From positions 64,001 through 128,000 of IMG/VR virus record IMGVR_UViG_3300002515_000003: a stretch of 64,000 bases of DNA; one strand, written 5' to 3'. This document shows positions 9,532 through 35,224 of the stretch, in pieces; positions within the stretch are counted from its first letter, which is position 1; each line of letters starts with the position of its first letter. Below the pieces are notes generated by a model that worked only from the letters and a program-made list of their open reading frames with translations, searched no databases and was not told the DNA's origin. The stretch is from a virus. Its lineage: Duplodnaviria > Caudoviricetes. The translations under genes were made by a program, and so were the position numbers.

Positions 9532-9605
9532 TAATATAAATGCAATATAGATGGTAATTGATTGGAGTAATTAGCTGTGAAGAATAGTGATTACTCCATA
9601 TTTAC

Positions 9606-9701
9606 GTGGATAGGGAGAGCTACCCGATAAGTATACATTCCTAAGTATACTTCCACTGTTTTAAATTAGGAAATTTAGATTCATTAGGAGGAGTTTAATT
9701 A
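9606..9701 (+). promoter_or_regulatory. Structured 5' leader (three-way junction, anti-SD loop), copy 1
   Basis: GTGGA/TCCAC outer stem; GGG-AGAGCTA-CCC hairpin; AAGTATAC/GTATACTT hairpin whose loop ATTCCTAA complements TTAGGA at 9666 and 9684 (RBS). Confidence 0.65.
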
Positions 9702-11090
9702 ATGGGATTAATAACAGAAAAGGTAATTATGAAATGGAATGGAAGAACTGCTAAATATTATAAAGAAAAGGGATATATTTTTACGAAGTGGTATGATGAA
9801 TTTGAAATTAAAGTAAAAGATTTAAGTAATGGGAGTAATCTTTCAGTGGACATAGAATGTGATTGTTGCAATAAAATATTAAAAAATGTTCAATGGTATA
9901 AATATATAAATAGCATTAAAAATGACGGAAAATATTACTGTCAAAAGTGTTCAATGAAATTATATTCAACAAAAAACATGGTAAAAACTAAATTATTAAG
10001 AGGTAAGTCTTTAGAACAATGGTGTATTGAAAACAAAAGAGAAGATATCTTAACTCGTTGGGATTATGAATTAAATGAATGTTCACCAAGTGATATATGT
10101 TATAGTGCAAATGGTAAAGATAAAAAAGGTTATTGGTTTAAATGTGAAAGAAATATTCATCCAAGTGAATTAAAAATTATTCACATTTATAATACCAAAG
10201 ACTCAGTTATAAGCAAGTGTAGTAAATGCAACTCATTTGCACAATGGGGAATTGATAATATTTGTTCTGATTTTTTAGAAAAGTATTGGTCTAATAAAAA
10301 CATATTAAATCCTTGGGAAATTGGACATTCATCTAATAAAAAGATATATATAATATGTCAAGAAAAAGAATATCATGAAGATTACCCAGCAACATCTGGA
10401 AGTTTTATAAGAAAAGTTAGATGTTCAAATTTTCATGGAAAAGTACATCTATTGGATAGTTTAGGAACATTATTTCCTGAATCTTTAAAATATTGGTCTA
10501 ATAAAAATATAAAAACTCCATTTGAATATACACCCAAAACAAAACAGAAAGTTTGGTGGAAATGCCCTGATGGGAAACATAAAGACTTTTATAGAGGTAT
10601 AGGTGATTCTAACGCATGCGATTTTAGATGCGTAGATTGCACAAGAGAAAGAGATGAATCCATGTTGCAAGAAAAAACTAGATTGTATTTAAATGAGTTG
10701 GGATATCAAGTGCTACATGAAAATAAGTGTACTCTAAACCCTAAAAATATAGTTGTACCTCCAAATAATAGAAGAACTAAAAAGTTAAGATATGATAATG
10801 AAATAATAGTAAAAGGGGTTCATTTTTTGATAGAAGTAAATGGTGGGCAACATTATATAATAAATACGTGGCATGAGCATATCGCCAAAAAATATAATAC
10901 CACACCACAACAAGAATTAGATTATCAGATAGCAAAAGATAAATATAAAAAAGAATATTCAATTTCTAATGGGTATGAATACTTAGCAATACCTTATTGG
11001 GAATTTGATAAAAACGACATATATAAATCAAGTATTTATAATAAAATACAAGAAATTTTAAATAAATCAATATGTAATAATATAAAATAA
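9702..11090 (+). CDS. Free-standing putative homing endonuclease: conserved N-domain, Cys-rich Zn-ribbon repeats and a C-terminal PD-(D/E)XK (Vsr/DUF559-like) nuclease
   Basis: WFKC/WWKC-xxGxH repeats; RYD...LIEVNGGQH...DKYK...IPYWE. Confidence 0.75.
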   Translation: MGLITEKVIMKWNGRTAKYYKEKGYIFTKWYDEFEIKVKDLSNGSNLSVDIECDCCNKILKNVQWYKYINSIKNDGKYYCQKCSMKLYSTKNMVKTKLLRGKSLEQWCIENKREDILTRWDYELNECSPSDICYSANGKDKKGYWFKCERNIHPSELKIIHIYNTKDSVISKCSKCNSFAQWGIDNICSDFLEKYWSNKNILNPWEIGHSSNKKIYIICQEKEYHEDYPATSGSFIRKVRCSNFHGKVHLLDSLGTLFPESLKYWSNKNIKTPFEYTPKTKQKVWWKCPDGKHKDFYRGIGDSNACDFRCVDCTRERDESMLQEKTRLYLNELGYQVLHENKCTLNPKNIVVPPNNRRTKKLRYDNEIIVKGVHFLIEVNGGQHYIINTWHEHIAKKYNTTPQQELDYQIAKDKYKKEYSISNGYEYLAIPYWEFDKNDIYKSSIYNKIQEILNKSICNNIK

Positions 11091-11114
11091 ATATCAAGAA
11101 AGGAGAGAAAATAA

Positions 11115-34715: not shown

Positions 34716-34920
34716 TATTAAATGAAAAGTAAATTTTATTGGGAAATCTTTAGTCACAAACCCACTAATAGCACCATTCTTGAAATAGTAAAATCGGTTA
34801 AATTTAACAAAATTACTAAAAATTAATTAATATTGGTAAAATCTTAATAAAATTTAATTAAATAAGTTAAATTAAGAAAGGAATTAAATTATGTATATAA
34901 ACAAAATAATACAAACGACA

Positions 34921-34994
34921 ATAAAAGAAAGACACATTTTCATGCATCTATCTCCAATGATATAGATATCCTCTTTATAACGGTAGATATCTAT
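34921..34994 (-). ncRNA. Predicted small RNA 1 (~74 nt)
   Basis: TTGACA(35029-35024)-17-TATTAT promoter; 5' hairpin AUAGAUAUC/GAUAUCUAU; terminator hairpin with GAAA loop and U tract. Confidence 0.6.
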
Positions 34995-35105
34995 ATATTA
35001 ATAATATAGCAATAATACATAAATGTCAAGTAAATAATATAAAATAATGAAAGGATTATGAAGGTAGGAATTAATTTTCTATCTTATTTTGTTATGCAAA
35101 AAATT

Positions 35106-35224
35106 AATGTGGTTTGAGTTTCAGGGTTCGAAGTCTAATTCTCTGTAATTAATAGAAGTTTACCTATAAAAATTTCTATTCCCATATTCAAAAATAAGTT
35201 TCCTAATAGGAGGAATAAATAATA
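35106..35224 (+). promoter_or_regulatory. Structured 5' leader (three-way junction, anti-SD loop), copy 3
   Basis: AATGTGG/CCATATT outer stem; CAGGG/CTCTG hairpin; AATAGAAGTTT/AAATTTCTATT hairpin whose loop ACCTATAA complements ATAGG of the RBS. Confidence 0.55.

Follow-up and report, generated by a model that had tools for sequence, protein, structure and literature searches.

A conserved family of leader RNAs ahead of free-standing homing endonuclease genes of phages

The window, a stretch of 64,000 nucleotides, comprises bases 64001–128000 of one virus record (195,571 bp, 27% G+C) and carries three nuclease genes, hereafter called HEG1, HEG2 and HEG3. Each of them is preceded by a leader whose minimum-free-energy (MFE) fold is a closing stem (P1) round two hairpins (H1 and H2), and the loop of H2 is complementary to one or two “targets” in the region of the Shine-Dalgarno (SD) sequence of the gene (Table 1). 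Comparison with their relatives indicates that the three leaders belong to one real and widespread family of phage leader RNAs, which precedes free-standing homing endonuclease genes and is unmatched in Rfam 15. The family falls into two classes, class A with HEG1 and, more weakly, HEG2, and class B with HEG3; judged from sequence, HEG1 and HEG3 are firmly placed as members. We propose that the element probably limits the synthesis of the nuclease, through the occupation of the ribosome site by the H2 loop and the shielding of the gene from upstream transcription. A first-pass annotation had already described the common architecture and a loop/target pair for each leader; the former is seen in all three MFE folds, and the latter are present in the sequence at HEG1, HEG2 and HEG3.

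Relatives of the three leaders

The shape of the three leaders, taken alone, is not beyond chance. The fold z-scores of HEG1, HEG2 and HEG3 are -1.13, -0.84 and -1.08, respectively, and an equal or better fold is reached by 30, 41 and 24 of 200 shuffles. Among the 117 non-redundant leaders described below, a local Y shape with E≤-12 kcal/mol occurs in 70, as compared to 53–60 of the 117 dinucleotide shuffles, and only the very stable Y shapes (E≤-24) are enriched, with 18 real versus 2–4 shuffled. The Y shape was rejected as statistical evidence, since the shuffles give nearly as many at the energies of the three leaders. When the duplexes between the SD window and the upstream leader are ranked among the 241 genes of this genome, HEG2, HEG1 and HEG3 stand at 25, 56 and 114, respectively. 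As these fold statistics are not significant, the case rests on the relatives. The strongest duplex of the 241 (RNAduplex, -23 kcal/mol) belongs to a radical-SAM gene (38546–40528), whose leader (about 40529–40640, - strand) contains a 16-bp perfect long-range stem between the SD region (AGAAGGAGAACAA) and an upstream anti-SD.

Close relatives of the region were not found in the phage collection by megablast; blastn gave one 108-nt coding match, and the proteins had only distant relatives there. We sought relatives with the N-terminal domain shared by six paralogues and one relative, and fetched 80 of the 143 from viral contigs and 80 of the 199 from metagenome contigs. The set of leaders numbered 163 and was reduced to 117 non-redundant ones. 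Two large groups, leaders lying in sequence that resembles an intron and leaders with a small conserved open reading frame (ORF) ahead of them, were set aside as off the question. The latter form a cluster of 12 (L007 (P16k), L032, L018, L034, L041, L070 and others), in which the small ORF (MKIFNIKQAD...) and a hairpin stand in place of the three-way junction; the same ORF is once preceded by a class-B-like element, L128. No relatives of HEG3 were found in the viral contigs, and the class B relatives therefore come from the leaders of other nuclease genes.

The leader of HEG3 aligns with those of L024, L048, L082, L089 and L038, whose genes belong to the other nuclease family, and the covariance model R1 was built from these six leaders. 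R1 matches HEG3 with 77.9 bits, a score that HEG3 attains by construction as a seed, and within the window's own genome it matches HEG3 only. The non-seed members are L125, L158, L104/L105, L154, L100 and, weakly, L128, which brings the class to 12 distinct members; L100, found by searching whole records with R1, precedes a different, zinc-ribbon nuclease. The members bear out the class B plan, consisting of P1 (AUGG/CCAU), H1, the junction GUAAUUAA, H2 and, directly beside the SD, a target. In the alignment of the 12 sequences, 89.8% of the cells pair, while the shuffled alignments average 67.4% and none of 500 reaches 89.8%. Both sides vary in 19 of the 25 pairs, and the covariation score is 0.641, versus 0.228 for the shuffles (0/500) and at most 0.18 with the partners slid. 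The helices contain 34 G-U cells and only 7 A-C cells, which points to the RNA of the sense strand, and not to an inverted repeat in the DNA, as the object of selection.

In 11 of the 12 class B members, a complement of 5–9 nt to the H2 loop lies 0–3 nt 5′ of the SD. The loop/target pairs take 10 different forms, such as CUACUA/UAGUAG, CCACUAU/AUAGUGG, CCAGUA/UACUGG and CCGUUA/UAGCGG, with CCUAU/AUAGG in HEG3. The HEG3 pair had been the weakest of those first reported, and it is validated because its homologues covary. To describe the H2 loop as an anti-SD loop is only in part accurate for class B, whose target is placed immediately 5′ of the SD and not on it.

Class A was modelled on five HEG1-type leaders (R2). 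At E≤1, R2 gives 20 matches, comprising the 5 seeds, 14 further + strand matches ahead of a nuclease gene and a single weak match on the - strand; 19 of them are in leader position. HEG1 scores 68.4 bits, again by construction as a seed, and the matches in this genome include P4k (28.3 bits) and P52k (25.1 bits). The plan in the R2 alignment is AAAGAUAG, H1, UGAYAAG, H2, CUUCUUU and a U-rich tail, and the class is marked by the junction words GAUAG and UGAYAAG together with this tail. Pairing amounts to 92.3% of the cells versus 67.7% in the shuffles, and the covariation score is 0.648 versus 0.232 (0/500), with slides reaching at most 0.224. In the 12 nt after H2, class A members contain 8.8 U on average, and at least 8 in 17 of the 19; the class B mean is 5.8. 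Class A H2 with its tail thus looks like an intrinsic terminator, while its class B counterpart does not.

The HEG1 leader is homologous to those of L054 and the paralogue P20k, with a mean column identity of 78%, and these three allow individual changes to be followed. Compensatory changes are found in P1 (GUGGA/UCCAC, GAGAA/UUCUC and GAGGA/UCCUC) and in H2 (GUAUAC/GUAUAC versus GUAUAG/CUAUAC). The loop and target 1 also shift together, from AUUCCUAA/UUAGGAA in HEG1 to UAUCCUAA/UUAGGAUA in L054. HEG2 is aligned by R2 through P1 and the tail only, with 11.5 bits (E = 0.028 over 261 nt). Its layout is common to L127 and L045, and it differs from the paralogue P52k in a compensatory manner, the loop AUCAAUCC with GGAUUGAU being replaced by UAUCAUUCC with GGAAUGAUA.

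The class A loops match their own leaders specifically. Among 17 non-redundant members, the H2 loop finds a match of at least 6 nt in the -24..-5 interval of its cognate leader in 15 cases, as compared to 72 of 272 non-cognate pairs. The corresponding counts are 9 of 17 versus 40 of 272 for the -48..-23 interval, and 8 of 17 versus 24 of 272 for both intervals at once (Fisher p = 1e-4); the non-cognate comparisons, like the shuffles, leave the kinship among the members in the counts. Target 2 mostly takes in SD bases such as AGGA or GGAG, and target 1 lies roughly 9–25 nt further upstream, most often 14–19 nt. The duplicated target is thereby a real, cognate-specific feature of class A. The claim that loop and target change together likewise stands, on the ten word pairs of class B and on the excess of cognate over non-cognate matches in class A. 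Over the non-redundant leaders as a whole, complements of at least 8 nt occur in 19 of 117 cognate comparisons versus 5.3% of 1404 non-cognate ones. In a set of 70 leaders, 9 hold the exact triple of an anti-target and two identical targets, as compared to 0.68 on average and at most 3 in 200 shuffles.

H1 has a feature of its own. Of 31 members, 21 have a palindrome of 6 nt or longer in the apical loop of this hairpin, as compared to 1 of 31 H2 loops. The palindromes are varied (UUCGAA, UUGCAA, UCAUGA, AUCGAU, UCGCGA, UGAUCA, GUCGAC, UAGCUA and UAAUUA) and often flanked by unpaired purines, as in G-UUCGAA-A. In the window, HEG2 carries UAAUUA and HEG3 UUCGAA, while HEG1 has only the 4-nt AGCU. 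A YUA triplet had been named as the common mark of this hairpin; most member loops do not contain it, and the palindrome is general instead.

Could all of this arise by chance, AT-rich intergenic DNA easily yielding Y shapes and short complements? The fold z-scores of about -0.8 to -1.1, the frequency of Y shapes among shuffled leaders, and the HEG3 duplex energy, which stands at the genome median, are what such an origin would predict. Nevertheless, covariation is found in both classes, the loop/target matches are cognate-specific, and both models lead to further members, outside their seeds, ahead of nuclease genes, so that chance is scarcely credible as the explanation.

Nuclease genes, genome context and known RNAs

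The tail-gene block of the + strand runs in the order Dit (8737–9531), HEG1, Tal (11115–13838) and HEG2. Further along the window, an integrase-like gene (33711–34715) is followed by HEG3. The GTG start of HEG2 was fixed by the alignment of the N-terminus. The features of the three loci are collected in Table 1.

Table 1. Positions of the leader elements, promoter-like motifs and nuclease genes in the window
Feature	Positions	Strand	Details and basis
Promoter-like motif AATAATATA, right after the Dit stop codon, 163 nt ahead of the HEG1 start	9530..9538	+	Over-representation; promoter role inferred
Plain 14-bp hairpin between motif and HEG1 junction	9563..9598	+	MFE fold
HEG1 three-way junction, class A	9606..9656	+	P1 9606-9610/9652-9656; H1 9613-9625, loop AGAGCUA with AGCU palindrome; junction GAUAA 9626-9630; H2 9631-9650, loop AUUCCUAA 9637-9644
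HEG1 U-rich tail UGUUUUAAAUU past P1	9657..9667	+	7 of 12 nt after H2 are U; not called by simple terminator scan
HEG1 target 1, UUAGGAA	9666..9672	+	7 nt complementary to H2 loop; covaries with loop in L054 (UAUCCUAA / UUAGGAUA)
HEG1 target 2, UUAGGAG (9684-9690), overlapping SD AGGAGGAG (9686-9693)	9684..9693	+	Loop complementarity
HEG1, free-standing homing endonuclease gene between tail genes Dit and Tal	9702..11090	+	Pfam DUF4379; PHROG 12131, 9084, 7140 “homing endonuclease”
Promoter-like motif within HEG1 3′ end, 30 nt ahead of the Tal start	11076..11084	+	Motif match
Distal promoter-like motif past the Tal stop codon	13843..13851	+	Motif match
HEG2 three-way junction	13873..13940	+	P1 13873-13882/13931-13940; H1 13883-13905, loop ACUAAUUAA with UAAUUA palindrome; H2 13909-13930, loop UUAUCAAUCC 13915-13924
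HEG2 target 1, UGGAUUGA	13961..13968	+	H2-loop complementarity
Proximal promoter-like motif between HEG2 target 1 and target 2	13977..13985	+	Motif match
HEG2 target 2, GGAUUGAU, in SD region	13993..14000	+	H2-loop complementarity; GTG start at 14007
HEG2, free-standing homing endonuclease gene after Tal	14007..15794	+	Pfam DUF4379, 5 stretches; PHROG 559, 9084, 12131
HEG3 three-way junction, class B	35106..35188	+	P1 35106-35112/35182-35188; H1 about 35117-35143, UUCGAA palindrome 35127-35132; junction GUAAUUAA 35145-35152; H2 35151-35180, loop ACCUAUAA 35162-35169
HEG3 target AUAGG (35206-35210), overlapping first bases of SD AGGAGG (35208-35213)	35206..35213	+	Loop complementarity
HEG3, HNH endonuclease gene	35225..36058	+	Pfam HNH_5, HNH; PHROG 1035

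A degenerate fourth copy of the leader had been suspected at 9551–9602. The sequence there folds into the plain hairpin listed in Table 1, and R2 has no match in it at E≤1.

The downstream genes had been described as two PD-(D/E)XK nucleases and one HNH nuclease. The HNH assignment is sound, as HEG3 passes the Pfam cut-offs for both HNH_5 (31.1 bits; cut-off 27.5) and HNH (23.3 bits; cut-off 21.4). HEG1 and HEG2 both match PHROGs of homing endonucleases. Their nuclease domain has a D...E-x-x-G-x-Q-H...D-x-x-K pattern, of which E, G, Q, H, D and K are invariant columns across seven paralogues and relatives. A sequence search of the PDB gave nothing relevant for this domain, and it weakly resembles Vsr (1cw0_A, Foldseek probability 0.60) and the catalytic domain of I-Bth0305I (3r3p_B, probability 0.66), which are its best meaningful Foldseek matches (both E about 0.6–0.9; mean predicted local distance difference test score, pLDDT, of the query model 66.6). 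These residues and structural matches thus lend the PD-(D/E)XK part of the description weak backing.

The N-terminal domain shared by the paralogues is found in other surroundings as well. A gene on the - strand (45367–46482) combines it with another C-terminus, lies 18 nt from its upstream neighbour and has no structured leader. In L052, L064, L066, L069, L071, L074 and L084, and also in L063, L065, L073, L076 and L077, the same domain lies inside a putative group I intron core (recurring ...UCAGGGGCAGAGCAUAG...). It would thus seem that this domain family includes intron-borne as well as free-standing forms. An origin of the leaders as fragments of group I introns was considered and rejected: Rfam gives no intron match, and the HEG1 stop codon is separated from the Tal start by 24 nt only. 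The three group I introns initially proposed in the tape measure gene (1–8610) have no Rfam group I intron match at the gathering score, nor at E≤5 in 1–37000.

The association with nuclease genes is seen from several sides. SD/leader duplexes are stronger at the nuclease genes of this genome than at others, both among all genes (Mann-Whitney p = 0.012) and when the comparison is restricted to the 81 genes whose intergenic DNA measures 100 nt or more (p = 0.0017). The exact triple is present in only 3 of the 241 gene leaders, and two of these belong to nucleases, HEG1 and g60608; HEG2 escaped the count because its start had been mis-called. The gene g60608 (G000:C1:60608-62077 (+), locus L183:174-310), which lies outside the window, encodes a nuclease (PHROG 9084, 559, 4538) and has a complete leader, with P1, H1 with the loop UCGCU, H2, target 1, a promoter-like motif and target 2. 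When five large virus records were searched with R2, and thus independently of any protein query, five new elements were found, four of them ahead of nuclease genes. The genes that follow the five encode a GIY-YIG protein (Pfam 45.6 bits), two DUF4379 proteins, one protein with an HNH-endonuclease PHROG match and one function-unassigned protein. The leader therefore accompanies nucleases, as first suggested, and does so across at least three catalytic classes, given the HNH nuclease of HEG3, the HEG1/HEG2 family, and the GIY-YIG, DUF4379 and HNH-like proteins.

The family was not recognised as a named one in the first-pass annotation, and the Rfam searches agree. Rfam 15, which includes the C4 antisense RNA, HEARO, int-alpA and group I intron families, has no match in the window at the gathering score and none over the leaders at E≤5 (1–37000). 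At E≤10, each leader of the window gives only chance-level matches far below the gathering scores, and the elements in 20 member loci have no match at E≤1. A literature search, limited to a partial collection, found no prior description of such a leader.

Three known RNAs invite comparison in outline. The C4 antisense RNA of phages P1 and P7 is part of the same transcript as its targets, and its loops are complementary to duplicated targets, one set of which lies at the ribosome-binding site downstream. A likeness to C4 had been remarked upon, and it extends to this outline: in our leaders one loop, rather than two, holds the complement, the genes encode nucleases rather than an antirepressor operon, and C4 was matched in none of the Rfam searches. 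HEARO, the omega RNA of IscB, is likewise a structured RNA directly 5′ of a nuclease gene. It serves as a guide, is far longer and is bound by the nuclease, while the present element measures 50–90 nt and its variable loop matches its own mRNA instead of a foreign target; HEARO, too, had no match in any Rfam search. Finally, the H1 loop, which is typically a variable, purine-flanked palindrome of 6 nt, resembles the kissing loop of the retroviral dimerisation-initiation site, in form only.

Possible effects on nuclease synthesis

In this phage, the motif AAAATAATATAAAA is over-represented genome-wide, its core AATAATATA occurring 75 times on the + strand and 72 times on the - strand versus about 21 expected per strand. 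The strand of the copies tracks the gene orientation, and 48 of 141 copies end at most 40 nt from a start codon, often 10–40 nt ahead of the start. The motif is likely a phage-specific promoter. Its positions in the window include 9530, 11076, 13843, 13977, 16301, 23404, 25566, 35000 and 35033, and it lies between the two targets in HEG2, P4k, L157 and g60608, while this arrangement is not found in HEG1 or HEG3.

We propose the following course of events. Transcripts arriving from upstream would partly stop at the U-rich tail of class A. Where an RNA does include the junction, its H2 loop would sit on the SD itself in class A and on the sequence next to it in class B, and the nuclease would consequently be made sparingly. 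At HEG2, transcripts started at the motif between the targets would lack the loop and escape the block, and the motif at 11076 within HEG1 would restart transcription for Tal.

The same logic is described for the T-even phages. Part of a published account (PMC2988022) describes T-even homing endonuclease genes with structures that sequester the ribosome-binding site and are bypassed by a late promoter. It also describes T4 mobE, whose coding region contains a terminator in the 5′ end and is followed, ahead of nrdB, by a promoter. The leaders treated there (I-TevI, I-TevII, I-TevIII, segB and Aeh1 mobE) share with ours a cis RNA structure at the ribosome-binding site of a selfish nuclease gene. 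In some of them, a promoter also allows shorter transcripts to escape; its counterpart here would be the HEG2 motif at 13977, given its presumed promoter role. Those of the mobE terminator and downstream promoter would be the class A U-rich tail and the motif at 11076. In contrast, the T-even elements, as that part of the account presents them, are simple hairpins with the SD in the stem. In the present family the SD lies outside any local hairpin stem and its region pairs with the loop of a distant hairpin, within a design of a three-way junction, usually two targets and a palindromic second loop. The hosts and the nuclease families also differ, and no sequence relationship was seen.

The repZ (repA) leader of the IncI1/IncB plasmids, as described in part of PMC8053102, provides a second parallel, since a hairpin loop pairs with the leader of the regulated gene, the pseudoknot governs initiation, and the competition for the loop decides the outcome. 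RepZ cannot be translated without that pseudoknot, which a separate antisense RNA blocks and in whose control a leader peptide is also involved; in our leaders, the effect on translation may be of either sign. Unlike repZ, most members have no candidate leader peptide that we could see, and no antisense gene was found. Nine-codon ORFs occur at HEG2, where an upstream ORF (MKGLIMKCY, 13988–14017) spans the SD and the GTG start, and in a like position in L088.

Several points weigh against the proposed limitation of nuclease synthesis. First, as the repZ leader illustrates (PMC8053102, in part), a pseudoknot beside the SD can be needed for translation, and in class B the SD core itself is unpaired. 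Second, the terminators are weak in the window: U accounts for 7 of the 12 nt after H2 in HEG1 and 3 in HEG3, and a terminator scan of 9400–14100 called none. Third, neither target is consistently the stronger partner of the H2 loop, and the proposal does not account for target 1. Fourth, HEG2 appears to be a divergent member whose membership is based on weak evidence, and a leader of this kind is absent at 5 of the 12 nuclease-like genes counted in the whole genome by tblastn and PHROG scans. Fifth, both alignments behind the pair counts were fitted to covariance models, which favours structure. Finally, a model of purely cis action assigns no function to the palindrome in the H1 loop.

This last point is the main reason to keep alive a different reading, in which the element acts in trans as a dimerising antisense RNA. 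A short, terminated junction RNA would kiss the leader of the read-through mRNA via H1, and its H2 loop would plug the SD in trans, target 1 meanwhile keeping the H2 loop of the mRNA itself occupied, so that repression would rise with the dose of the leader. The high frequency of palindromes in H1 as compared to H2, their diversity in sequence and, in several members, their flanking unpaired purines all fit this scheme, as do the terminator-like tail and the two targets of class A and the presence of several distinct palindromes and H2 loops among the structured leaders of this one genome. Moreover, in P20k (G000:C1:19824-19896, outside the window; locus L008:424-496) and L054 (1092–1166), a perfect TTGACA-16/17-TATAAT ends 7–8 nt before the first base of P1, and the junction would thus be the 5′ end of its own transcript there. 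However, a sigma-70 promoter abutting P1 was rejected as a general rule, as only 4 of 31 members have one (at least 10 of 12 matches, ending 0–12 nt before P1). The free small RNA and the dimer remain hypothetical, class B has a single target and lacks the U-rich tail, and a loop palindrome may simply be a stem running to its centre, as GUUGCAAC in L038 and L100. We regard action in trans as possible but unlikely. Its extension to a self-addressed antisense device, in which each co-resident nuclease has a private kissing word and a private loop/target word, with target 1 as a decoy, is rather doubtful. If true, it would provide one phage with several independent, dose-dependent shut-off circuits and confine each nuclease to a short pulse early in infection.

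Could the element instead promote expression? As a translation activator or mRNA stabiliser, the 5′ junction would guard against 5′-end-dependent decay, and the pseudoknot together with an SD-like target 1 would hold the ribosome site open or recruit the 30S subunit. Bacillus mRNAs have SD-like stabilisers at their 5′ ends, and target 1 often resembles an SD that no start codon follows. Furthermore, the class B helix abuts the SD without covering it, and in the same 4 of 31 members with a sigma-70-type promoter the predicted transcript starts near the base of P1. The precedent of the IncI1/IncB plasmids, in which the pseudoknot is essential for RepZ initiation (PMC8053102, in part), points the same way. 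On the other hand, class A target 2 covers SD bases, with AGGA or GGAG inside the paired stretch in most members, and the nuclease genes already have strong SDs such as AGGAGG. The motif between the targets in HEG2, P4k, L157 and g60608 would also produce transcripts devoid of the supposed activator, and selfish nucleases are generally kept low, according to part of PMC2988022. Taken together, these considerations make an activating role improbable.

The inverted and the two direct copies of the word, together with the palindromic H1, might also function in the DNA, as operator or cruciform sites that the nuclease binds for transcriptional autorepression. I-TevI represses its own promoter in this manner via an operator that resembles its homing site (PMC2988022, in part); in addition, the two targets flank the promoter-like motif in the four leaders just named, and H1 is a nearly perfect DNA palindrome in some members. 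Nevertheless, the excess of G-U over A-C helix cells is an asymmetry specific to sense-strand RNA, and the loop/target mismatches are often G-U as well. Within one leader class, the downstream proteins have DNA-binding and catalytic domains that are unrelated to one another. Nearly all members also have repeated words of their own, which suits pairing better than recognition by a protein. An operator is therefore very improbable, and the limitation of nuclease synthesis by an RNA element is the reading that we prefer.

Among the selfish genes of large phages, homing endonucleases are the most common, and how they stay harmless is known mainly from T4-type phages. The present family offers a compact and portable RNA module with strong comparative support, which accompanies at least three catalytic classes of nucleases in many uncultured phages. 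If it throttles translation, it would be a general answer to the question of how such genes reside without cost in essential late operons, here between Dit and Tal. The variable loop/target word, combined with the variable palindromic loop, would then make the family a natural set of orthogonal RNA regulators. For annotators, the element may serve as a marker of the boundaries of nuclease cassettes.

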